Of a DNA stretch of 64,000 nt, positions 16,613 to 63,161 are shown piece by piece; position 1 is the first letter of the stretch, and each line of letters opens with the position of its first letter. This DNA comes from Ascidiella aspersa (lineage: Eukaryota): positions 25,420,001 to 25,484,000 of the forward strand of contig OZ004609.1 of the NCBI GenBank assembly GCA_963924565.1, in the 5' to 3' direction. Position numbers and translations under genes: made by a program. The notes under the pieces were generated by a model that worked only from the letters and a program-made list of their open reading frames with translations, was not told the origin of the DNA and made no database searches.

Positions 16613-19600
16613 TCAGGCAACATACCTAAACAAACCAAATAGTGATAATTAACCCACAGCCTGAAAATATATTCGGAAAGTTGCGGTTTAGGACGATCGT
16701 GCGACTGCTGTGCTGTTCTTGTTCTCAGAAACTTGGCTTGGTTCGTAAAAGATACGCTGACGCCAAGCAACAAATTACTGTTTTACCAGGTGAAGGTTTT
16801 GGGCGTACTACATTGAATGGTTGGTATATAAAAAAACATACAAAGTTGTTGAGAATAAATCGACGTGGATTGTGTGAATAAAAGGATGTGTGTTATATAC
16901 TATTCTTTTACGGACAAAACTGAAACCACTTAAGATTAAAAAAGATCAGATCAACTTATACATAAATGCAGTATACAGGCAGTGTAGGGAATCCGCGATT
17001 TTTAAAAAGTTTAAAGCCAAATTGAAATTAAATTGGGCCTAAATATAAAACTACGCATGCTTTCACCGTCTTCTTTGTTAAGTACGACACGATATCTCAC
17101 CTGTAATGATCTGGTGTTTCGGGCGATCGCTCGATGTACCCCTTGTCGATTAAAGACTCGATTGATCGCTTAATGGCAGCAATGGTGGGAGTAAAGTGTA
17201 GCCTGGCTTGAGTGATAACCTAAGTTGAGAACATAACCAAAATTAAAAAAAGCACAAAAAAGATATTAATTAACTAAAAAGAGGAGAAAGTGGGACAGGA
17301 TTTTAGTGGTTATTTGTGAGGAATTTTTTCAGGTGGAACAGTGTTTGAACAACTTTTAGGTTAAAAAAATCCAGAGCAGCAACTGTATTCGCAAAGTGCA
17401 TTGAATATATTGCTTACCAGTTCGAGGAGACTGTTGTGATTGAGAGCCTTCCGCGCCTTTATGACGCGAACAATTGCCGCCTAAAAATAAAAAGCCGCGC
17501 CTTAAAAATCCAACGGTGTAATATATTACCATTGACTTATAGCTTTTTAACACGTTTGTGATGTTATCCACAAACAATTGTCATACAGTTCAACCCATTT
17601 AAAACGATTAATAGGACAATAATTCGTTTAGTAGCTGTGCCTAATTATTAAGTGTCGTAAATCCGAGAAACTCGGATGTAAAAGAAACTCAAAAACAAAT
17701 GATACAAAAAAACTCAAAATTCTCTGACATTTACCTTGATGCGCGACACTTAAAATATATAATTTTTACGAAATGACGGGGGATAATTTCAACGAAAATA
17801 TAAGCAAACATTAATAGGGTAACAAATATAGGTATTTTTCATTCGTTTATTCGAACAAAGGGCTTCGTATCTATCCCTCCAAAAATTGCTCCCGGGGTCT
17901 TACCTGGAGGTAGAGTTTGCGGTCCTCATCTACAGAGGAGCGGGTCTGCTTGGATTCGGCCACCTGCTCCTTGGGAGAGGGAGCCATAGAGACCTTGAAG
18001 CGGGTCCTCTTATTTGAGAAGGACTCGTTTACGATCAGAACGGAGGTAGCGCAGAGCTGTGAGAAAAAAAAATGTTGAAAAATGAATTTATATTGTAAAG
18101 GGCAAACCTTGTTAAAAATTAAGTAATTAATTTTAGTCGTTAAAGTGATAAAAAGCTTTATTCTAAAGGTCTCCGCAACGCTGCCTACCTGATATTGACC
18201 CTGGTGTATTTTATATTTTTCTTACATCAACCAGTAAGTCGCAATGCGTTTATACAGAGGATATACTCTGCAAGGAAGATTGGAAAGCAGGAAACTTCAA
18301 TTTAGGCGAATGATTAAAAATGTGTTACAATTTGACAAGGGCGGGAATAATAACTCACAATAAAATTGGCCCAGGATCAGTTAGCGGTATACAGAGCTAT
18401 AATTCCCAAAGTATTCAAACCGCCATGTATGTGCTAGCCTAGAGCTTCAAAACGCCAAGAGGGCAAAAAATGTGGTAAAAGCCTAAACAAAATATTAACC
18501 TTGCTGGAATCCTTGGTTTGCAAAATGCTGGCGTCGATTAGGGACTGCACGCTGCGAAGAACATCACCGCTGTCCAGATGCGTGCTGCGCGATACTTCAT
18601 CAACCGTCATTTCTGCGACTTCATTGTAGTTTAGAACGATCGCAAGTTGGTACGTCGACATTGTGATCTGAAATAAAACAATGTGGCAAAAAATAAACCC
18701 TACAACAAGAGACATTTTTTTCCAATCACGGAGTAATACTTACAAAGTAGGCTTTAGACTCGGTGAACATTTTGACTTCGGCTTGGGAAAGGTGTTGGAG
18801 CCAGGTTAAGTTGCGACCGTTGAATTGCGATTTGTAAAAACCTTCGAACTGCGGAAAAAAATATACAACTCGTGAAACATTATTACAGTATAGAGAGATG
18901 CCTGGTTCAGAACACCGAAATTTTAAGTTTTAAACACACCTATTCCACGTTAGCCGGATGCAAAGATGAAAAATAGTTTTACTGATAATAATACAACTGT
19001 CAAATAATCAATAAAAGGTTAACATTTTTTCTGTCTATTACGGCAGAAAAGTAAACAGCGACATTTTCTACGTCCAAGAACTGTGGACAATATACTTGCT
19101 GAAAAAGTTCAACTAAACCAGAACTAAGTTTAAAAATAGACGCGCGTTTATTTTACCTTTTGAACGCACTTTACGAGAGCTTCTGGAAGAATGAAGTTCG
19201 ACTGACTTGAATTCAGTGGCCAAGCACCAGCCTGAAAAGTAAAACTTTATTACAGTATGAACTCAACCGGAAACTTTTCGAAAGAACAAATTATGACATG
19301 TTGAATCATTATGTTTTACTACGATACGTAGATTTTGAAAACAACTTGATTATAAAGCAGTTAAATTAACCACCATCAAGAAATAGTTAACACCCAAGTA
19401 AGGCGTCATTCAGTTTTAAAACCAAAGCGTTACAAAATACACATAGCTTTAAAAAAACGCGTGATCAACTCCGCTTTTTGTAACACAAAACCACTTCAAC
19501 CGATTAAAACAGTGTTATCTTGAATATTAAAATTTAGTACAAAATTAAAAAAAAATGTTTCTTTTGTTTAAAAAAAGTATTTAACGTCATCATTGCTGTT

Positions 19601-22600
19601 TTTTAGCTGCGCGCACATACACAAAAAATCAAACACTCCTAATCTAAAACCTGCGAGTTGTACGCGCGCACCTGCAGGATGTTGACGTTCATGCCGGGGC
19701 CGAGCTGGTCGCCCGACTGCGCCACCGACTCGTGGAACTTTCGCGTGTGCTCGGCGCTCATGCGCACGTCGCTGAACATGCAGTGCAGCTTGGAGGTGAA
19801 GTCGTAGCCGCACACGTCCTTGAGCCGGTTGATCATCTGCTCCTCCATGTCCATCACGCATGCGCTGTGAATGAGACGCTTGGCCAGCGCGCGGCTGTAA
19901 AACTGCGCGCAACAAAACGGTAGCGATTAGGGTAGAGCAGTGGTTCTTAACCGGGGATCGATCGAGCCCAAGGGTTCGGCCAGAACGTCCTCTGAAACAT
20001 AAATGCTGTTATTCCAGGCTAAATTTGAATCTATTATGTGTGCAAAGTGTCAGGTAACGTTATAAATTGAAATTTTGGCCAATTTAACCTCTATAAATGC
20101 ACATTTGTGATTTGAATATGCCCAGTTTCAGCTGCTAGGAAGAAACGAATACTGAGAGAAAATTTGGGATTTCGACGAAAGCTTGCAGAATAACATAGGG
20201 GTTTCACAGGTTATCAAAAGTTAACAATCACTGGGGTAAAGAAATGCTGTGGCAGGCGACGCGTATTGATTTTGGTTGGTCGACAGTTTTGCCGTTTCGC
20301 AGCCGTTTGTTGCAGGGCTAGGGCCACAGTAAAACAGCACCGGGGGCCACAAACCGTATTTCCAATTGGAAGGGCTCCGGCTCAGCTTCGGAGTGGTAGT
20401 TTTTAAAGTTGCTTCAATACAGGTTAAATGAAGTTACATTTGATCACTTAACTGCTTAGTTAGTAGTTTTCATTTCAACAATTTAAAATACTTTCTCACT
20501 AGGGTAGATAAAAATTTAATGTTTCAGCTCCTAAAATTTTAAAATGGCTCCGGCTCCACAAAAACATTAAAAATGGCTCCAGCTCTACAAAACTAATAAA
20601 AAATGGCTCAAGCTCCGACTTAACAATGGCTCAAGCTTCGACTTTTACAAAAATGCCTAGGCTCCCCGGGTCGGATTGCTCCAAGTTTAAGGGTCTGACG
20701 TGCCAGGATCACGAGTTCATACGTTTTTCTTCCATGGCCTACAAAGGGTTGGAGGCTGCGGACGTTTTAAGGGTTTTGTTTTCGTCGATGTTGGTTACAA
20801 TTTGGAGGGGTTTTGTTGGACCACAATTCAATTTTTTTTAATATAGGATATTGAATAAGCAATAATAAAAATGAATATCTCTGTATAACAAAACATGGAT
20901 ATATATTTAGATTCATGCCATTTTCCCAAAAGCTGGAAGAGGCTGTGTAAAATGTCAGTTGTCATTAAAAAAAACACATATTACAACATATATTGTACAA
21001 TTAAAAGGTATTTCTAGTCAACATATTGCGCTGTGATAACATTTTATATCGTTTTTCCTGTTTAGTATGGTGAAAGGTTTTATTTTTTTAAGGGACACAT
21101 TTGGCGTTGCCTATTCATAAGCTAAAATCAGTTAACATTTTAAACAATAGAGCCAAACTTGGTACAAAAAAACTGATAAAAGCGATATCATCTAACCCAG
21201 CGGTTCCCAAACTGGGGTCCGCGGACCAATTGGGGTCCGTGCAGCTGTTTCAGAGGGTCCGCAATGAGAATTGAATTAGTCTTCAAGTTTTTCAACATTA
21301 GTCTATGAGCGAATGTTTTTAAACATTAGTATTAGTCTATGTTTTAAACATTGTCTTTCACCAATCTTAGTCTTCGTTTATGCTTTATTATTCGATAATA
21401 AAGCGTGTTTTATTGTCTCTCGTGACATCATAAAGCATCTATTATGCTGTACTACCTGTTATCAGCGATTCGTTCGCATTAGTTAGAAAGTTGTGACTGC
21501 ACTAGTGTACTACAAGAAACATGGCTCAACTGACCCTTGATTTTTATAGGGCCGCGAAATATCAATATAATCGCAAAGGGTCCACTAGGCAATTTTTTAG
21601 AAAAGTTTGGGAACCGCTGATCTAACCTAACGAGTAAAAATTAGATAAGTTCGACACAGATAAATGGCCTAACCTTTTGAAAGACGTCCTTGTCGTCGAT
21701 GTAGCGAAACACGACGATCGAATTTTTAAGTTTGTCGTCAGCATCTTCGGTAGAACCTTTTGAGCAGCGCCTCAAAATGCTGTCGCAGTACTTGGACACC
21801 TAAAAATCGACAGCCGATTCAGAAATTTTTAGATTAATGGTATCAGGTACGAAATCACGTCGACGACTTAAACGAACAACAGTGGAAATGTGGTTTTACT
21901 TGGATGATTCTAGTGGTTCTGCAAAACCTTGAAACACAGAACATCTGACACTGGCGCTGAATTCTGCTCACACTTACACCCTTACAGGTAATTAATCGTG
22001 TTGTTGGTATAAAACGGTTCCGGAAACCATTGCGAAAATTGCGACGCGCAGATTTATTTTAAAGGTTTCTATCACCTGACATGCGGCCATAGTCCATGGG
22101 AATGCAAATAGAGCGTTGTTCCCACAGCAAAGTGCTACACGACCGTTTAATCTTACAAAAAAAGAAAACGCTGTTATGCAATCGGTTCGGAAATGGTACC
22201 GAGTATATTTTACCCAAAATTGAGTATATTTTACCCAAAAGAAAACGATAAAAAACTAAAATAAAGTATGAGACAACTCCTACCATCTCTGGCGCGCGGC
22301 AAGGCTGCTTCGGCTCGCTGAAGTTGACCACGGCGGTACAGGCGCGATCCAGTGCCGAAATAAAGTGCTTGTCATCGCGGAACAGACTGTGGATGAGGCC
22401 ATAGTAGCGCCGATGGACCTCCAACACCGCCTCCACGAAACGCGTCGGCATCTGCGGAATTTTTTCAAGTGGGAGAAAAGGGTGTTTTTAATTTCCGTTA
22501 CAAGTTATGCGACGGCGATATTGATGTAGTGATCCCCCAAGGAAGATAGTTAAAATTACGGAGTAAAATACATTCTACAAGCATTTAAATTGCGTAAAAC

Positions 22601-25600
22601 AAAATTGTCCATAGTTCTATCTTGGCTCCAGCGGCCCAGCATGAGATGTTTAGTTACTGTTTATATTGTGTCTTCTAGCAACGAAACTTATATTAACTCT
22701 ATATGGTATTACTTCATAAAAAATCTTGTGGACCTCTTCGATAGGTCACCAATCACCATGGATCAGTTTTCGGAATTTTTTATACCACAAAAAACAAGCT
22801 GCATTTTTTTATTGAATCACATATATATGTGTTTTATGAGTCTAAAATACAGTTAACTTTATGAAGCAGGCAGAAACACACATGCACCTACATTTTGGCC
22901 TTGAATTGCCTTTATCGCTTCCAATCCATTCTCCTTGATGTGAGCTTCCAACTCAGTAACCATGTGGCTCAGACCTTCCGGGGCAGACTTGAGAAGCATG
23001 TACATGTGCAGCAGGTCTGGACAGAAATCGTTATCAAAGCTCACGTCAGCTACAAAACTGACTTTTTATATTGTCGTTAAGTAAATTTAAAAGGTTGTAT
23101 CTTTCATGAAAAAAAAAAGTCTTAGTGTTAATTAGGAATAATATAAACTTGAAAAATATTATGTTCAACCAACAAGTATACATGTTATAGATATATTTCT
23201 GACCTTCACGTCTATCATGTCTAATCATTTGTCGGCATCCAGCTTGGAGAAAATTCACATGATCGAAAATAACCCGCTGTTGACATTCCAGTGTGGCCTT
23301 CTTATATGAGGTCTGATTGAGAAACTTGCGACTTCGCATTTCCTCCTCAGTCAGTAAAACTAAGACCTGCAATTAGGAAAACAGAATGACCATTTTGGCA
23401 CAAATTTAATGATAAGTTATCATAGTATTGTTTATTTTTCCTAAAAAATGTTGTATTTTATATTGCTTTTATTATAGTAGTTAGTATTTTTAATTTGTTC
23501 AATGAAAACACATGGAGCAATCAGCTTCAAATCACAACTAAGATGTTGAGCAACAAGTCAACAACCATGTGGCCCATACTAACATAATCCTTAAATTTTA
23601 GAGATTTTTTATTGGCTATTGGACAAAGGAAAACATACTTGCTTCATGTAATCTGAACAAGTCGAGTCAACCAGCAGTGCATTTGCTTTGGCCCTGTAGA
23701 ATTCACCTGTCTGTTGAAGGAATGGCTTTTCAAAGAGGTCTTCATAAAGCTAAAAAGGACAACTATAATGAAAATCTTGTCTTCACAATGTCCAACTATT
23801 TTCTTACATTTCAAAGCATTTTTTACCACTGGTTATTGCAAATTAACCAACCTGAAGAGGGTTTTTCCGTTTATACTCTTCGACTATCACCAGGGAGCTG
23901 ACCGTGGAGTTTACAACCTGATGATTGACAGTTTCATTTTTTCGATCCTTGGTGATCTCCGTTAAGACGTGCTCAACAAGCCTTTCTTTCAGCGGCTCTA
24001 TCATTTCAGTCCTCCAGCATTCAAGGGCAAGCTTAGAAAGTTAAGAAGATCTTCTTGAGACTGTTTCATAAGTCTTTAATTGTTTAGTAGAAGACCTTTT
24101 GTTGCATGATATGAATCAGTAAAGCGCTAACATGCACTACAAATTTGCTTTAATTAGAAATGTTGCAAGTATGTTTATGATTTAAACCGCAATTTCATTG
24201 CACTTTTTACAATAAACATAAAATGAAATATCTATAAATAGCAAACACTGGACTGGATTCTGTGTAACAAGTCCATAATAAACGCACACAATTTTACAAC
24301 CTTTGACAGGAAGTAATTTTTTAAATTAGGAATATATATTAAATATGAGGTACCGAATATCAGTGAACATAGTATTACCAAAAAAAGCCAGGAACCTGTA
24401 TTAGCTACCTCTCTTATTTCCAGCATTTGTTCTTTATGCTCCGGTGGAAAGCAGTAGTCAAAGTCGGCATGATAGGATCTTGACTTCTTTATGTATTGTG
24501 TGTTAAAGTGGTGGTAGAGTTTGTCTAGGTAGGAAGCGCCTTTGCTGTACACCAACCAATGTTTGGCATAAGCTGAAAGCAATTCCACATTTTCTTCGCT
24601 TATTTCCTGTAATGCACATTAAACAGCTGAAAAACAAATCCTAAAAAGTATTTCCTTTAGACCTTGAGATATAAAAAAGTGTAGAACAAAAAAAATTGTG
24701 GATAAGTTTTAACGGCAGAGCACCGATATGACTTCATACGGCGATGAAAAAATAATAAAATGAAGTTATTTAAATCTAATGGTTTTAGGTAATTAGGCCA
24801 AAAAAAGCTTAGCTAACTTTTTGAAAAATTCATCTTTTAAAAAAACTTTTTTTTTTTTACAACTCACATGAACATTGAAATAGATTGAAAAACAATTGCA
24901 TTTCAAATGAGCGAACAAGATCAAACGGCCATTTTTATTATGCTTTTGCTATATGGACCACAAGTAGCTATTCAAAAGCATTTCAAGAACAAAAAAATTG
25001 CAGTGCTCAGGGCAATCCACATAGTCAACTTACACACAACTTGTACACTTTCCGCAACAGCATCCAAAACACATTTTTGTATTTTTTATTTTGTTAACAT
25101 TGTAGTTTTATTGTGTTTCACATTACTTTGGAATTACTTTCGCTTTCTGCTTCAGTCAACCATCGAATTTTACTATAAATTTTGACTCAAAATTGAGAAT
25201 AAACCATGAATGAACTGTTATCAGCTACTGCAGCGATAATTCCAGGATTGTTTTAAAATAATAACACAACAAAAGGATGTCGTTGAAGGCGATTTTAATC
25301 GTGGAGAAATTATAATCTGCTTTACGGTCAAAATGACTGTTGGCGGCAATTTTAGGTAAATCGCTTCCCACCTCATATGTGGTTATTCTAATAAACTAAA
25401 AATTTGCATGCTATATAAGGTAACCTAGACTTAGAAATAGTCAGGAAGTTTTAACATTTTAACAGTTACCTGAATGTTTTGTGGTGCGGACCAAAAACCA
25501 AACCACGCCGCGGGCCACAGGTTGCACACCCCTGTACTAAGTAACAATACTACTATTTCGCATTAAGTATGGGCTTTGATCCCAATTTATTAGACATTTC

Positions 25601-25904
25601 TTCTTGCATAGTCACCTTATACAACTCTAGGACATGCTTGCACAAAAGCTCCTTTGTTTCACTGTAAAGAGTTTCACTCAGTGTCTCTGGATAACCAATG
25701 CATATTGAGTAGACATCGCTAAAAGCAAGCATCCAAATTTAATAATCCAGCTCATAAATACAGAAGTAAAATCACAAAACATAAAACTACTTACGAAAAG
25801 CGCTCATTCCAAACAACTCTTTCCAGGGGTTTTTCTGAAATGACTCGGTGAACTGTGTCCGACAACCTTCCCCAGGTTGCGGGAAAATCCACTTCGCGTG
25901 ACAT
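16613..25904 (-). CDS. CUL2: Cullin-2, 17 coding exons, ~736 aa
   Basis: Exons 25904-25795, 25718-25616, 24606-24409, 24031-23852, 23749-23639, 23366-23204, 23016-22892, 22451-22284, 21799-21674, 19902-19672, 19231-19157, 18848-18744, 18667-18500, 18056-17904, 17480-17418, 17219-17101, 16625-16613; all GT-AG and in frame. CUL2-type N-terminus (VDFPATW...WNERFSDVYSICIGYPE), cullin motifs (FRYIDDKDVFQKFY, LQAGAWPL, GRNLTWL), neddylation motif AIVRVIKARK and C-terminus YRYVA. Confidence 0.95.
19938..20233. mobile_element. hAT-type MITE
   Basis: Imperfect TIR CAGTGGTTCTTAAC / GTTAACAATCACTG; 8-bp TSD GGGTAGAG / GGGTAAAG. Confidence 0.8.
20541..20670. repeat. Degenerate ~28-30 bp tandem repeat (AAAATGGCTCCGGCTCC...)
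   Basis: About five units with an ATGGCTC core in a CUL2 intron. Confidence 0.7.
21198..21619. mobile_element. hAT-type MITE
   Basis: Perfect 16-bp TIR CAGCGGTTCCCAAACT; perfect 8-bp TSD ATCTAACC. Confidence 0.9.
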
Positions 25905-26033
25905 TGAATGCAAATTTCAGATTATAACTTTAGGATAAAGCCTAAATAACATATTCAAAAGAAAATACTTTATTTGGAGAAAAGCATAACTATTATACTT
26001 TATAACAAACAGACTGGTCAAGGGTATAACAAG

Positions 26034-26714
26034 TTACTTGACACTTTTTAGTTTTTTGTCAAGTTCATTATACAGAAGCAAAGAAACAAAAGCATCAAGA
26101 GCTGAATAGTTTAACTGATCTTCTGACAGTGGGAAAGAGTCCCATCTGCCTTTTCTAACTGATGTCTCTTTCGGCAAATCCTTGGACAAAACATGACGAC
26201 ATAGTCTAGTTAAGCTCCATTTTTGAGAAGAATTTAATACTTTATTGGCAAAGTCACTTAATTCAAGATGGCTTTCCAGTACTTTGGAAGAAACATTGTC
26301 AAAGTCTCTGTGTAATTTCCAGAGGTCTCCGGAAATATTAAGTCCGACCTTAGTAATTTGTGGATCTTCCAGGAGACAAAGTAGTGCTTTGGGGATGCCA
26401 CCCATTTCTGATATATGAAATACAAAACAAAAGTCTGAGGAAGGGCAAATTTGCAAAACAGCAACTTTAGAGCCACCATCAGCCCCATAGGTGACTGGCC
26501 ATTCAGCATCAAGAGCTAAGACATTTAAATTTTTCTTTACTATAGTCAAAATTTCACTGCAGAGCAGATTGCAGTCCTGGGATTGGTAAGAATAAACAAC
26601 TCTACAAGTTGTGGGTAACTTTAAAATAGGCAAAATAGAATTTGGTTTGCATTCTCCTGAGTCACAAGAGCTTGCTGTTGATTTTTCCATCCATCCTGGT
26701 AATTTCCGAGGCAT
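26034..26714 (-). CDS. WRNexo: Stand-alone Werner-syndrome-type 3'-5' exonuclease (DEDDy), intronless, 226 aa
   Basis: ExoI LALDAEW, ExoII VGLNISGDLWKL, ExoIII QLNYSALDA; WRN-like segment CFVFHIS...LLEDPQITKVG...WKLHRDFD; N-terminal RKLPGWM. TTGCAG acceptor at ~26760; AATAAA at 25974-25969. No helicase domain. Confidence 0.9.
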   Translation of the reverse strand: MPRKLPGWMEKSTASSCDSGECKPNSILPILKLPTTCRVVYSYQSQDCNLLCSEILTIVKKNLNVLALDAEWPVTYGADGGSKVAVLQICPSSDFCFVFHISEMGGIPKALLCLLEDPQITKVGLNISGDLWKLHRDFDNVSSKVLESHLELSDFANKVLNSSQKWSLTRLCRHVLSKDLPKETSVRKGRWDSFPLSEDQLNYSALDAFVSLLLYNELDKKLKSVK

Positions 26715-28100
26715 AATATGAAGAAAATTAAATCATATGTAATTCGTATTGAATGCTCTCTGCAATTTAACAGACTGCTTTACCAAAATTCATCACTTAA
26801 AGCTAAAGATTGTTGTTACATAAAACATATTGTTTGGAAAATGCCAGTCAGGTATATTTTAATCATCCTAATATCAATTGAAGTAAAATATAAAAAAAAT
26901 TTGAGCTTCTTGTACAGATAGTTAAGAAGGGTCAACAAATACTGAATATGACCCCAAAATTAGTCATAGACCTGAATAATAGCTTTGTTCAAAAACATTT
27001 ATACTTATTGCATCTCTATTTTTCATTATGAATCTGTGTTATATGTTGTTATTTTATTTCGAGAGAAAATGTTTCAATAGCATCTGTAAAATTGCCCAGC
27101 CTAATCTCAAAAGAATTTTTTTTAGGACTAGGATTTTTTTAGATTAGGTTTGCACAACTTCGATTTTAAAGAATGTAGCGTGTCCACAACATCTTGGCAG
27201 AGAACAAAAAGATGTAAAAAAATATTTTTGAATACAACAAGTAAATAAGTTCAGTATTTCAGTAAAAATGGACAAAAAAACCTTGTTTTCCCTCATTTGA
27301 ATGTGTATAGTATATGTTGAGTAACAATGCTATCCATATTTAAAGAAAGAGGCTCTCTTGTATATAATTTTATATACAAATTTAAACAATAAAATCTTAC
27401 CAAATATAATGTGCTATTAATATATATTACGGCTTTAACAACCGAAATTCAAATGGTTTTGAGGCTCAAATTTTGGTCACAACCCTTTATCTAAATCGAT
27501 GCTAGCTTATCCTTGTTAAATGTATCCGAATATGTTGGGTAATTTTAATTCTGCAACAGTTTGAATCAGTCTGATCTGCATAACGCCAAGTTATTTATAT
27601 TACATATAAAAAAATTTGATACAATAATGAAGTGTGCCCAAACGTTTTGAATGTAACCTACAAAATTATATCTTTTTTAAAATATGTAGCTTTAGAGAGC
27701 TTCTGTTTATTAACTACATTAACTGGCTGATAATTTAACGTATAGTTAAAGACCCGGCATTTTAGCAAGTTTCGGAAAGAGTTGCCAAAACCCACTGATC
27801 AATCTTCATTTCATGGCACTTTTCGTCCAGATTTTAGGTGTGTACAAACTTTTTTTTTTTTAGTTGAGTCAAAATAACATGACCGTTTATTTAATAATAG
27901 TTTGAAAGCTGTCGTATACAGGATTGTAGACCAAAATTTGCATTTAAACAGATGTCTATTTAGGGTTTTATGTACACCCTAATTAGACATCTACATAAAA
28001 ACTGGGATGTTTATGCTTACAGGGCATAATGATTTGGTATACAATGGTGCATTACCAGTGTTGTCTGTGCATTCGCAGGAAGTTGAGACAGGGTAACTCG

Positions 28101-28364
28101 CACTGCTGGAAAGTATGGCAGATCTCGACGAGATCTTGCAGGTGCACGGCCGAAAAAATCCGGGTGACTGGGTGAAACGAAGGTCAAAAAGTACACCTCG
28201 GGTGCATTTTATGATTTTCTGATGCATTCTGTATTGCATACATTGCACTGTTAACGTATTCCGCACAAGCGTTTTACATGTTTTGGGTGCAGTTCAGATT
28301 TTTTCGGGGTGCACTTTTAAAAGGTTGAAATCTCGTGGGTGCACTTGCCATACTTTCCACAGTG
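28101..28364. mobile_element. MITE with 9-bp TSD (Mutator-like) in the divergent promoter region
   Basis: TIR CACTG(C)TGGAAAGTATGGCA / TGCCATACTTTCCACAGTG; perfect TSD GGTAACTCG at 28092-28100 and 28365-28373. Confidence 0.85.
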
Positions 28365-29287
28365 GGTAACTCGTAGTTGAAATATATAATCTTAATAACG
28401 CAGGACCCAATTAACTGGTAATAACTTCACCAAAAACATACAACACAATTAGTATTATACACAAACCTGAGTTAAAGCGGCACACATAAGTTAGTGTCTA
28501 GGCATGTGTTTAATTCAAGGTATTATAAAGCAGGGTTCGATTGAATTTTATGGTCCCAGAGATTAGTGATACCCTAATTCATTTTGTTTACACTTGTTTT
28601 GTCTTACTCTAACTTTTATATGAAGTACGCACTTTTAGGTTCTAGAAATGTGCAGTGAACCATAGCGTTTGATTTTGTGTAGGAATTAGGCATTGCTTGT
28701 TATTATTGCCGTTTAGTTTGAGCGTTCGAGCAAGTTATTGCACAAAAACATAATTGTTTCTCTTTAATACAACCTCGTCTATACGATGCACAGTATGTGT
28801 ATAAAAAACTGTGCAATATCCCCTAAACTCTCTTTCACGGCCCTTACGTTGCGTGGTAATTTTACTTAAAATTGTTTATTAAAACTTAAATAATTGTAAA
28901 TTCAGTAAAATCATTTTTGTCTGTGTTGTGTGCTACATTTCCTATTACAGTATTAATAGCCCTACTTGTCATTTAAAATGGATGTTGACGTTCCAGCTGC
29001 TGAAGTTAAAGAAAAACTATCTAAGCGTGACATAGTTGAAATCTATTGAAGGGTGACTTCTTAACAAACTGTTGAAAGGAGTACAATTACTCAAAACTTC
29101 AGTAGTGTACTTAGTTGTTATTTATACTTTAATTTTTTATCAGTTTAAGGTTTATGATTTTGCCAGACTAGACCGTCGTGTAAATAATAATATACTAGTT
29201 TCCTTTGTGCTGCCGTTATCTTTAAGTGGTTTAGAAATGGACGGCGTAATCATTCAGTAGCTGGCCCCTGGCCGTCATATTCGGACA

Positions 29288-32200
29288 ATGCTTCCTATTA
29301 ATTCAGATGTAAGTTGTTTTTCTAGTTGTTGTTTTAGAGTTTATACCAAATAAAAACACTTTGTTTTAAATGTTATAACAAAAAGGGGCGCTGGTCTTGA
29401 ATCCTACCACCTTTTTAGTTTACAGTACTTAACGAAATGAGTTGTCAAAATATAAATCACAAGATAGAAATAATATGGAAGAATAAATATATTATTAATG
29501 CTTTACTCATCCTAACCAAATGTTAGCAATATAAAAATGTTTAAAAAAGTAAGCGCGAATGAAGTTTCGCATGTTTGGTTGATTTTCGGAGGCTGAACAT
29601 TTTTTGGTGATTGTTCACTTAACACGTGGCTACAACCACAACTGAGAGTGCAATTGCACAGGCATACATTCCTTCATAGACCATTCCTGGTCCAGTTTGT
29701 ATTATCCAACAAATTCTAATCATTATCAGTCATAGTGTGAAGTATATATAACTGACTGTATGTCCTAACATACATTTTTTAATAGCAAACCAACCTCAGT
29801 GCCGATGTGGCTCCTTTTGTTCCCCGGAGGGAGTTTCAAAATGAAGCTGACTATCCAGAGCAACCCCCTCTTCCAAGATATCTGACCACCTGCTATCCAT
29901 TTGTCCAAGAACAGCAGGATGGAAGGTAATTTACTCAATAATGAAAAATAATGTTGTTGATCCTGGTATATATCACCTAATTGCATTGCCTGTTATTGGG
30001 TAAGAATCAGGTGTAGGAAAGTTTAATAAAACATATGTACACACATATGTGTGTTAACAAGATCTAGCCCTTCTGAAGCTGCTTTTTAACCAACGATTAC
30101 GGCTTACATATCATTAGTACACTGAAAGCCATTGCAGACTCACGGAATCTGTCGATCAATGATGCAAGCAGAGCAGGCTAGAAAAACATCTAGTCTGCAG
30201 TGAGGTTCCAACTCACGACCTCCAGTCAGGGTATATATCATATTAACACTAAGTGTTTAAAAGCGTTGGTAACACCTAGTTAGGGTTTAAAAGGTGTAGT
30301 TGTGGTTGGTCTTGCACGTTTTATGTAGAATAAAATATACTTGCAATCGTAAAAATTATTTAGGTTCTAAACCAGGGGTCGGCAACCTTTTTCTAGTCGC
30401 GGGCCAAAACAAAACTTGAAAAGGTCTCTGCGGGCCGCACAAAATGATAACTAAGAATTGTGATATTTAAATGTTAAAATAACTGTGAATCAGGCAGGCC
30501 TCGGATATATTTTTGCACTTAAAAATGCTTGTGTTTAATTACATTTACAGAGGCATCAAAGTGTTAACACAAAGCGAATGAAAAGTTTAATAAAATTACT
30601 TTGAGGAAACGCGATAACATTTTAAGTTAATCTAGTTGAGTTTTTGTTAACTGTTTGAAGTGAAGACACAGCTAGCGAGCGAAGCGAGCGCGATTTTTTT
30701 TTGATATACTGGTATTGCTTTTAAATTCTTTGCAAGTTTTTAACGTTGCCGAAAAAAGAAAAATGCTAAAAACATTATAGCCAATATTTTTTATTACTTT
30801 TTCTCATTTTGGGCTACGCACTTGGCAGCCTTCCACAGCGCAATGGTTAAGAATCGCTGATCTAGTTGAAAAGGCCGCATGAAACGTAAACAAACCGGGC
30901 ATATAATGAATATTTTTCAGAATTACGTAGTTCAAATAGACAAAAAGTATGTGGAATTGACTCGTGTCTAATTTGTCAAAGAGGCGGCGGGCCGGATGAA
31001 TTACATCGGTGGGCGGGATCCGGCCCGCGGGCCCTAGGTTGGCGACCCCTGTTCTAAACATTGCTATTTATTCACACTTTGTTTTTTCATGGGTTCGCTA
31101 TTTCAATTATGAAAGTCGAAATGCAGACAAAAAGCTGTATGCCTCTTAAGCGGAGCTTTGTGTTGTTGCCCACCTTTGGCAGATCAGGGTTCACCTAATT
31201 ATGGCCCATTAGCAAAATCTGGCCGACAATAGCACATTTCCTGAAGTTTATTAAAGGTTAACTAACGGAAATGTTTGTCATACGCTAAAGTAAGCTAAAT
31301 TTTGATAGAATTTTAAACTATAAAACATGTTTTACAAAGCTAACACTACATTTTAAAATATATAATAATTATGTTTCCTTAGTTTAGTGATAATCATGTC
31401 AATACAGTTTGTCACAAAATCTGATATTCGGCCTCAATCTTTACACAAAAATTTGACCCCTTGTTTAGATCAGGGCCAAATCTGGCCTGCTGGTTTATTT
31501 TTTTTGAACCAGTGGCATATTTCACAAAATAACCTAAAATTGTGTTATTAATACTTATTGGGCAAAACGTTTGTCTCTTGCAAAACTGAACTAAATTGTG
31601 TTGAAATTTTAAACTAAACTTTATCTTAGTAAAAATTTTGATTAAAATTTTATTTATTTTTCTTTGTTTTATAATAATTTAGTCAAATAAGGTGAATACA
31701 AATTTTATATGCAGCCCATAATCTCTAAAAATTAGAATTATTGGTACCTAAATGGATTGTTTAAAATGCCCTTCTATTAATTCAGCTTAAATAAATTTAG
31801 AATTGTATTCTAATGTGATTTTATTGCAACAGGATTTCAATGCAAACTTCCAACAATAGCCACGTAAATCCTGCCAATTTCACTGGTCCTCCGGCAGCAG
31901 TTACACCTCATCGCCAGTTTATATTAGGAATGATGCCACCAAGTGCTGGATTTGTAGGTAAGTTAACCACCATATTTGTTTGGGTATATTTCTCCATGAT
32001 ACGTTGTGCAGGGAAAATATGTTTAACCAATACATTTATTGGTTGGTTCCTTTAATCCAAGTGTGGGCAACCTTTTTAACACAAGGGCCAGTCAGGAAAT
32101 GTAATGCTTAGTAGAGGGCCGCACATTAAATAAACACTAATTCATATTTTGAGCTTTTACTAGAAAACCTACTGAGCTACTAGGTTGCAACTACGGCAGT

Positions 32201-55185: not shown

Positions 55186-55917
55186 TTAGTTGCCCCCAGA
55201 TGCGACAGGACGGCAGTGCTCAAGCATGCAAGTTGCACATGCGGGAACTTTAAGGGCCTTTCTTCGAAGCTCCGATGGACAGAAGGAACTGCAGTGGGTA
55301 TTCATGCAGGCCAACTTTTTTCCCCGACAGGTTTCCTTGCAAGTCTGACAATCGTCGTTTCGGCATTGGTTCACTTTGCAATCCTTTTTGCATAACTTTC
55401 GGTTGGCCTCTGTTAAAGTATATAGGTGCAGTGTGACAATTAACAGAGTACGTTCATTGTTTTTCAAGTATATCAAGTACAATGTTTTACTTAACGATTG
55501 TAAACCGAACAAAAAAAGTGAAGCTTTTGGTTTAAACTGGGAAACAATTACCCATGCCTGCAGGCTAACACAAGCCAAGGAATACATTGGGCTTTCAAGA
55601 TTTAAGTTAGTTTTAAGAATTGTGTTTATTTTAAAGATTTGCCATATTAAACACCGGAGGAAAACTATACTACGGAAGTAACAAAATCACTTACTTGATC
55701 GGCATTTGCAGTTTTGTCTGCATGTGAGTTGAGCTTCGCATGCTGGACATACTGTCGTACACTTCAAAGGCGCCAAACGGGTCTTGGCCTCCTTCCGGGC
55801 CATTCTGTCCTCGACGCGTTCCATCTTGCTGGCCTTATGCTTTTTGTGTTTGTGTCCCTCTCCCAAAGCGGCCACCAGCAGTACGCAGCAAAGCACAGCT
55901 ATTAAAAACTTGGCCAT
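55186..55917 (-). CDS. Vanabin-like (vanadium-binding) secreted protein A, 148 aa, 18 Cys
   Basis: Exons 55917-55695 and 55409-55186 (phase 1). Signal peptide, His/Lys-rich leader, then C-x3-C-x2-C-x5-C-x3-C-x-C-x8-C-x3-C-x4-C-x4-C-x2-C-x3-C-x6-C-x4-C-x3-C-x13-C-x2-C-x4-C, Lys/Arg-rich. This matches the 18-Cys C-x(2-4)-C vanabin pattern. Confidence 0.85.
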
Positions 55918-61657: not shown

Positions 61658-62621
61658 TTAACCACCCCGTAAAACTGCCCCGCCCATCGCGCGAAATATG
61701 ACGGTGAAACATTTTTTGAAAGCGCACTTTGCACAAAAATGGTTTGATCGGAGGGAGTTGAGACTAAATCGGCTGCCTTTCAATGCACAGGGATTTGAGC
61801 ATTTTTTATCAATGCATTCGGCAATGACAGGTTGGCAGCGCGATACACACGAGCTGCATTGCTCGGCCAGGTATGCAGGTTGGTGCAGGCAATTGATAAG
61901 ACAGGTCGCTCTACTAATTTTATCTGCAGAAACAAAATGCGTACCTTAAAAAACCTACCATAGGTTGCAATAATATATTCAGGATGTCAGATAATAACAA
62001 AGGGATGCATATCATGTGTGCCAGGTCGATCTACCGACAATTGAGCGATATTAAGGTGTAGACGTCATAGCATAGTAAGCAGCGATTTCTACATTTCAAA
62101 GTTTATAAATAAGGGTCGTAACGATTTTTGCACAATTATCGCAAACAATCACGATAAACAATTACCACAAGGCTTAAATAGATGAATATCAATTCCAAAT
62201 GTTCTCCAAAGTGGGACCCCCCTCCTATAACGATAAATATCTCTCATCAATAAAAAACACCAGAGAGTCTAAACTGCTGGATTTCATCTCAGAATGTTAT
62301 GCGCGGTATATTTATATAAACAAATAAATAGCTAATGTTGTAGTTACCCTGTGTGAGTCTAAATAATTCGTTTATATTGTATATTTAAACTCATGTCAAT
62401 AGGTTGTCGATACAACTCCACTTCAATAGTAGTCTTACCCTACCTGTAGAAAATAAACATGTGCGCAGACAATTCACCATGTTCCCACAATTTTCCAAGG
62501 TGTAGCAACTTTTGCCGCATTGGTCAAGCTCCTCGATATCCTCCGGTCTAGGATGTTGCTTTTTTCCGTACGACATGGCAACCGCGGAAAGCATTATGAT
62601 AACAACCAAAAATATCTTCAT
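61658..62621 (-). CDS. Divergent vanabin-like secreted protein B, 147 aa, 16 Cys
   Basis: Exons 62621-62444 and 61923-61658 (phase 1, same position as gene A): MKIFLVVIIMLSAVAMSYGKKQHPRPEDIEELDQCGKSCYTLENCGNMVNCLRTCLFSTDKISRATCLINCLHQPAYLAEQCSSCVSRCQPVIAECIDKKCSNPCALKGSRFSLNSLRSNHFCAKCAFKKCFTVIFRAMGGAVLRGG*. Confidence 0.8.
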
Positions 62622-63161
62622 TCTTTCCAGAGCTTTATTTATGCGAATGATAAAATTTATACATTCTAGAAAATGAAACTGCAATGCTGAAATCAAACGA
62701 TAAGCTACGCTTACAAAACTATCTAAACAAAGCTTTTCAAATTGTGTAATAAAAAAATATTTATTATAACAAATTTAACTCTTCAACGTCTCACATCTTC
62801 AATGCTACAATATATAAGTGCAGAAAATTTGCAGCTGCGTTTGCCTGCAGTAGATAGGCGAATCGTTTTGCTTTAGAAACGCTCTTGTAGTTGTCACGCG
62901 ACGCTACCGGAAGCCATCGCTCGGTCAAGCAAGCTCGTTTTAGAGTAATAAATTTAAATACGCACCGATGGCCAAAAGGCGATTGCCCACGGTTTGACAA
63001 AAAAAGTCGAGTATGAACGATCGTTGCAGTGGCCATTTAATTCTGCAAAAGCTATGCGCAGTTCGGCACTGACTGGCTGTTTATCGCTTACTCCATCCTG
63101 TTGCAGGTTTTAATGACACTCGGGTGACATGCTTACACGTTTGAACAAAACACAAAATTGA

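Follow-up and report, generated by a model that had tools for sequence, protein, structure and literature searches.

Gene organization at the exonuclease-CUL2 boundary

The sequence analysed here is a 64,000-nt stretch of Ascidiella aspersa DNA (hereafter the window, to which all unprefixed coordinates refer). On its minus strand, an intronless gene for an exonuclease of the WRN type is followed at close range by the multi-exon gene for cullin-2 (CUL2). The two genes and the elements at their boundary are the following:

26034..26714, minus strand: intronless, stand-alone WRN 3'-5' exonuclease ORF of 226 amino acids plus stop, likely first cistron (PF01612 match; unspliced X3 contig at 26007-26992; minus-strand X5 reads)
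25942..26033, minus strand: spacer of 92 nt, 47% T, predicted exonuclease 3'UTR (from the sequence)
25969..25974, minus strand: AATAAA, read from the sequence 27 nt ahead of the acceptor G; absent at the matching place in L004, the locus of a second animal
25942..25946, minus strand: TTTAG, within TATTTAG (AG at 25943-25942), predicted spliced-leader (SL) trans-splice acceptor of CUL2 (sequence; computed contig end at 25940)
25795..25941, minus strand: CUL2 exon 1, with a 37-nt leader, ATG at 25904 and GT donor at 25794 (exon and intron position shared with L004)
16613..25904, minus strand: CUL2 coding region of 17 exons and about 736 amino acids, likely second cistron (exon matches to cullin-2)

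The exonuclease ORF opens with an ATG at 26714, a start methionine common to its relatives, and closes with a TAA at 26036-26034. The AG lies 92 nt from this stop, placing the two same-strand neighbours less than 100 nt apart; the CUL2 ATG at 25904 follows 37 nt further on, and the two coding regions are separated by 129 nt. An initial annotation of this DNA had listed the stop, the AATAAA, the AG and the CUL2 ATG on the minus strand, and a reading of the sequence found all of them in place. It had also seen no room for a promoter between the genes. This holds for the spacer but not beyond it, as a promoter could sit within the exonuclease ORF. By analogy with the Ciona pattern, the spacer would serve at the same time as the branch and pyrimidine region of the CUL2 acceptor.

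Each boundary motif is weak by itself, since chance would produce the start of an AATAAA with p 0.045 in the given 26-nt span (p 0.14 anywhere in the spacer) and, at a distance of up to 60 nt from an ATG, an acceptor-like word with p 0.09. The case for an operon is carried by the 129-nt intercoding distance, together with the RNA end and the conservation described below. The AATAAA at 25974-25969, which had been offered as support for an operon, is indeed present, but such operons in Ciona typically, though not by definition, lack it: in the available text of Satou et al. 2006, AAT(U)AAA is absent within 40 nt of the junction in 16 of 18 cases (PMC1488885). As it is not kept in L004 either, the signal lends the operon reading weak support.

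The name CUL2 was upheld, two downstream exons having cullin-2 as their best match and a cullin domain being present. The end of exon 12 was placed by eye, and in a comparison of exon 3 with longer proteins none of five candidates was scored.

The first gene encodes a WRN-type exonuclease

In a profile search, the exonuclease ORF matched PF01612 (E 1e-25). Among PDB structures it comes closest to WRN exonuclease domains (E 2e-46 to 1e-42), with EXD2 (E 9e-13) and mut-7 far behind, and these two results bear out the name WRN exonuclease originally given to the gene. Residues D69, E71, D130, Y203 and D207, which we take to be the catalytic set of the enzyme (D-x-E, D, Y-x3-D; DEDDy), are invariant in all 14 aligned sequences. 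The ORF is thus a predicted DEDDy 3'-5' exonuclease of the WRN type. It consists of one open frame covered by an unspliced contig, as expected of a single-exon gene, and the L004 copy is intronless too. Short stand-alone relatives, searched for between 117 and 396 amino acids, occur in Phallusia (225 amino acids), Ciona (221-223) and Styela (251).

The frame ends after 226 amino acids, and no RecQ helicase is fused to it. When a 1,432-amino-acid WRN-like query was compared with the animal's own genome, its exonuclease part matched only this gene among the 16 matches listed, and the best helicase matches (five of the 16) fell on contig C8. WRN therefore looks split in this lineage, with exonuclease and helicase in separate genes. 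The helicase gene is a multi-exon WRN-like gene at G000:C8:26,403,324-26,411,253 (L113-L116), with 36-78% identity per piece. A search of the same genome for the RQC family came back blank, a result put down to introns. Elsewhere, at G000:C2:26,181,576-26,185,106 (L003), a 908-amino-acid intronless frame gives a distant 3'-5' exonuclease match at 30% identity; it is presumably EXD3/mut-7-like.

Ascidian affinity and spliced-leader genes

The exonuclease was placed in a protein tree of 38 rows, comprising the window protein, three locus ORFs, 10 proteins, 23 of 150 listed representatives and one outgroup. The window protein, P0001 and Phallusia form a group at 98/91, within a 14-row set that includes Ciona and Styela at 93/90. 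Vanabins are a vanadium-binding protein family of ascidians, and a cysteine-rich ORF with a Vanabin-2 domain (window 55186-55686, minus strand; E 4e-9) agrees with the ascidian placement. Another cysteine-rich, signal-peptide-like ORF lies at 62391-62774 on the minus strand and has no Pfam match.

The genome was then queried with the Ciona 16-nt leader, as given in the available text of PMC7986045, followed by GT and with up to two mismatches allowed. This yielded 884 matches against 55 for a control, many of them in 584-bp tandem arrays. A GTAA donor stands behind the leader in nine of the ten copies listed, which come from six of 12 loci. The genome thus carries gene copies, here called putative SL genes, that would encode an SL RNA. 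Long tandem arrays of the 584-bp unit extend over G000:C3:5,218,799-5,451,030, and adjacent units vary in sequence past the donor, which argues for several SL RNA variants. Past the donor, the Ciona Sm motif showed no enrichment (21 matches versus 19 in the control). Leader relics near the acceptors were considered as a trace of retroposition and rejected: three places with 11 of 16 matching letters were found in about 1,120 nt, with about one expected at a background of 0.0009 per position.

Conservation of the gene pair

A metagenome scan gave 80 loci (102 confirmed), seven of which (L004-L010) were compared with the ORFs of the window. L006-L010 measure 1.1-3.2 kb and are mostly too short for testing gene order. 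Of the seven, L004 and L005 hold CUL2; being identical, they were counted once. In L004, CUL2 exons 1-5 (55-76%) come after an intronless exonuclease gene (50% identity) and share its strand. An acceptor-like site lies 11 nt before the exonuclease ATG, and a strong, pyrimidine-rich AG acceptor-like site lies 59 nt before the CUL2 ATG. The exonuclease stop and the CUL2 ATG are 2,465 nt apart, a distance that could accommodate a promoter; as measured by coding ends, the genes are not within 100 nt of each other. The nearest AATAAA is 414 nt above the CUL2 acceptor. Similarity between the spacers of the window and L004 was not significant, being reached by 38 of 500 and 463 of 1000 shuffles. Gene order is thus conserved, but neither the close spacing nor the AATAAA nor the spacer sequence has been kept. 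L004 further contains a second, more diverged intronless WRN exonuclease (L004:3844-4497, plus strand; 217 amino acids; PF01612, E 2e-19). Located 3.5 kb upstream of the main copy on the same strand, it is a tandem duplicate and could form a three-gene unit there.

A likely orthologous pair is found in Ciona robusta, where KY21.Chr3.251.v1.SL1-1 is CUL2 and KY21.Chr3.252.v1.SL1-1 is WRN, a second WRN model being on Chr14 (available data of PMC10951915). The "SL" in a Ciona model name denotes an experimentally defined trans-splice acceptor, according to the accessible part of PMC6836712. Serial numbers of the earlier KY2019 set track position in all 30 rows listed, of 95 (PMC11155486, as far as its table is available); assuming that KY21 numbering is positional as well, the Ciona CUL2 and WRN genes would adjoin. 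Chr3.252 is probably the exonuclease-only gene. Both products are detected as protein, with 23 peptides for CUL2 and two for Chr3.252 (available data of PMC10951915). The initial annotation had proposed gene order in other tunicates as a check on its operon reading, and the outcome is favourable: the exonuclease precedes CUL2 in L004, and in Ciona the two are consecutive, SL-labelled models, compared here by number and label. These Ciona gene models already imply the pair. No paper on it was found in the literature, although the operon supplements, incompletely covered, may list it. The Ciona 2006 operon table, which consists of bare model numbers, gave no match to the gene names in the one of its two files that was searched, and the PMC6952182 supplements gave none in 12 of 14 files.

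These comparisons bear on an explanation that dispenses with a shared transcript. In it, the two genes would be overlapping monocistronic units: CUL2 would be transcribed from a promoter inside the exonuclease ORF, lose an outron of a few hundred bases and receive the SL at 25941, while the exonuclease transcript would end at its own AATAAA. The median Ciona outron, 458 nt, would indeed place the CUL2 start site inside the exonuclease ORF; a canonical AATAAA is at hand; the gap in L004 is wide; and the SL label in Ciona is by itself no proof of an operon, since about half of all Ciona genes are trans-spliced. On the other side, the neighbourhood is kept in three animals, and a single-exon first gene with a T-rich spacer ending in AG fits the published operon pattern. 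On balance, separate promoters for the two genes appear quite unlikely.

RNA evidence over the two genes

The RNA survey covered window positions 23300-30000 and four of the five listed runs. Of X5, a stranded run of raw RNA reads, about 6% was sampled (444 reads placed). X3 is not recorded as RNA but was treated as such because its contigs are spliced. Minus-strand depth in X5 is 5-12 over the exonuclease ORF and 2-6 over CUL2 exons, with values of 4.9 and 5.2 in the bins flanking the boundary; bins of 224 nt cannot reveal spanning reads.

The CUL2 contig of X3 is spliced, 3,379 nt long and has a depth of 22.4. It carries 250 letters past exon 3 (104 + 146), and the corresponding bin depths of 10.4 and 14.6 equal 104/224 and 146/224 of 22.4. 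From the agreement of letter count and bin depths, the contig is calculated to reach 25940, stopping one base before the predicted junction and with no added exon; its last pieces are among 1,595 unlisted ones. The same bin arithmetic gives no X3 cover over 24032-24408, a CUL2 intron, or over the repeat-free part of a second one, 25720-25794. The contig end bears no leader letters and falls 3 nt short of 25943, the end expected at a branch between leader and genome. Assembled contigs often drop the last bases of a 5' end.

Such an end, bare of leader letters, would also be produced if CUL2 had its own leaderless start site at or just above 25941 and the AG were incidental, an acceptor-like word being within the reach of chance at the p of 0.09 given above. 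This sits poorly with the SL label of the Ciona ortholog, with the strong pyrimidine-rich acceptor ahead of CUL2 in L004 and with the usual fate of contig ends just mentioned, and a leaderless start is the least probable of the explanations considered.

The X3 exonuclease contig is unspliced and spans 26007-26992. Between it and the CUL2 contig is a hole over 25941-26006, so that X3 shows no continuous RNA over the boundary; such holes prove nothing. No SL-bearing, poly(A)-bearing or junction-spanning reads were present among the 24 loose-end rows listed, nearly all of which come from repeats; 386 more rows were unlisted.

Region upstream of the exonuclease gene

The elements upstream of the exonuclease ORF are listed below.

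26760..26765, minus strand: TTGCAG, which may act as SL acceptor for the exonuclease mRNA (AG at 26761-26760; next base 26759), identified in the sequence; four X5 reads and one X3 contig pass through it
26803..26807, minus strand: TTTAG, putative second acceptor of the exonuclease mRNA, bracketed by X5 coverage of 4 at 26771 and 0 at 26850
26850..28063, no strand assigned: upstream region, likely outron of the unit, covered by unspliced, strandless X3 contigs (depth 22.7 to 26992, then 4-6) and by no X5 reads
29086..29308, plus strand: first exon seen of a divergent neighbour gene, bounding a putative shared promoter region (X3 record; opposite-direction X5 reads)

The initial annotation had pointed to 26759 as a second place to look for joined leader reads. 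TTGCAG does stand directly ahead of it, but the 5' end of the exonuclease mRNA is not simply there, because four X5 reads cover 26771 and none covers 26850; use may be made of the TTTAG at 26807-26803 or of an unspliced start. An early exon of the divergent neighbour (29086 onward, plus strand) weakly resembles SECIS-binding protein 2 (E 0.05), and from further motifs we presume the gene to be SECISBP2-like. High-copy short repeats, with DNA depth up to 19,000, occupy 28100-28365 and 24890-25540. The first of these lies where the promoter is presumed to be, and its copies are polymorphic. DNA run X2 has a 30-nt insertion at 27238 relative to the window, an allele difference in the presumed outron.

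The upstream region is also where a second possibility raised by the initial annotation can be judged, namely that the exonuclease gene is nested, on the same strand, in an intron of the CUL2 5'UTR. The AG at 25943-25942 would then be an ordinary cis acceptor joined to an upstream non-coding exon. Five donor-like sites between 27400 and 28847 make a very short exon of this kind formally conceivable, X3 provides unspliced, RNA-like cover up to 28063, and a very short exon, or one in the repeat at 28004-28451, could escape read placement. However, no CUL2 mRNA spliced to an upstream exon was seen: the depth-22 contig has no letters past 25940, and X5 has no minus-strand reads in nine of the 11 bins across 26884-29347 in a run of depth about 5, the other two bins lying in a high-copy repeat (DNA depth 9,000-19,000). 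X3 has no contig at 28452-28899, and the Ciona CUL2 model begins at its SL site. Within the low depth of X5 and apart from its two unreadable bins, the data thus show a CUL2 acceptor without an upstream partner and no host exon spliced across the exonuclease gene. Nesting has lost ground accordingly and must be considered very improbable.

A likely SL-resolved operon

The exonuclease and CUL2 genes very probably form an ordinary SL-resolved operon of the Ciona type, with the common single-exon first gene and, presumably, a dicistronic transcript. The dicistronic reading, as first proposed in the initial annotation, draws indirect support from the SL genes in the genome, the CUL2 contig ending at the acceptor, the gene order in L004 and the SL-labelled neighbours in Ciona. 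A single promoter between about 28,100 and 29,086 would drive RNA through both genes. A portion of the exonuclease mRNAs would lose the outron at 26759 or 26802. The exonuclease mRNA would be polyadenylated at or just before G25942, and joining of the 16-nt leader to 25941 would generate the CUL2 mRNA. Each transcript would probably yield one mRNA or the other, as was argued for Ciona, where one transcript is held to give only one of the two mRNAs (Satou et al. 2006, available text; PMC1488885). The pairing looks like conserved genome packing and not like a functional partnership.

A bolder reading combines two proposals. In the first, the boundary is a switch: the AATAAA lies in the acceptor region, and cleavage and trans-splicing would compete on each transcript. 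In the second, the exonuclease half of a split WRN gene shed its introns and, in an early ascidian, was taken in as the leading gene ahead of CUL2. If the switch existed, the ratio of nuclease to ubiquitin-ligase scaffold would be set by RNA processing; if the capture took place, the locus would offer an old, comparable instance of the way operons come to be headed by single-exon genes. Against this reading, the AATAAA is not kept in L004, and the Ciona embryo proteins lack a mirror pattern, CUL2 being flat (0.115-0.139) and Chr3.252, with two peptides, doubling (0.084-0.174; available data of PMC10951915). The combined reading is regarded as unlikely.

Taken as an SL-resolved operon, the locus adds one more to those of ascidians, and its practical use is in annotation, where the pair is best given as two abutting gene models and WRN as a split gene. 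Its other value is comparative: the pair occurs in three animals, and the length of the boundary varies between 92 nt and about 2.4 kb. As a minority copy with a canonical poly(A) signal, it is also handy for the question of how upstream 3' ends are formed in operons that lack intercistronic DNA (Satou et al. 2006).

Comparison with known systems

The initial annotation had relied on ascidian operons being resolved by SL trans-splicing, often with no intercistronic DNA. This background is borne out by Ciona, where the available text of Satou et al. 2006 reports that the ends abut in each of 19 mapped operons, in one case once extra 5'-RACE had been done (PMC1488885). The accessible part of Satou et al. 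2008 counts 1,310 candidate operons, 60% of them headed by a single-exon gene; together they comprise 2,909 genes (PMC2760879). About a fifth of Ciona genes are reported to have this arrangement. The present locus resembles this class in having two genes on the same strand, less than 100 nt apart, with an AG at the boundary and a single-exon gene ahead of a multi-exon one, and the same 16-nt leader is encoded in the genome. What sets it apart from most members of the class is a canonical AATAAA at most 40 nt from the boundary, a feature of only two of the 18 Ciona operons. The abutting mRNA ends of the Ciona class are mapped, whereas the poly(A) site and the leader junction here are predicted from sequence.

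The surroundings can be compared as well. The second WRN model of Ciona is on Chr14, and here the helicase half is likewise on another contig. The model next to the pair in Ciona is SPCS1; in the present genome SPCS1 maps to contig C4, and it was rejected as a third cistron.

Outside the tunicates, the gene recalls Drosophila WRNexo, which, in the accounts available, also has its exonuclease domain apart from any RecQ helicase. The likeness ends there, as a separate WRN-like helicase gene is kept here and in Ciona, and the operon context is particular to tunicates. In its abutting cistrons, resolved by the general leader, the pair is like the SL1-type operons of C. elegans; by the available text of PMC1488885, however, this class without intercistronic DNA is a minority in the worm and the majority in Ciona.
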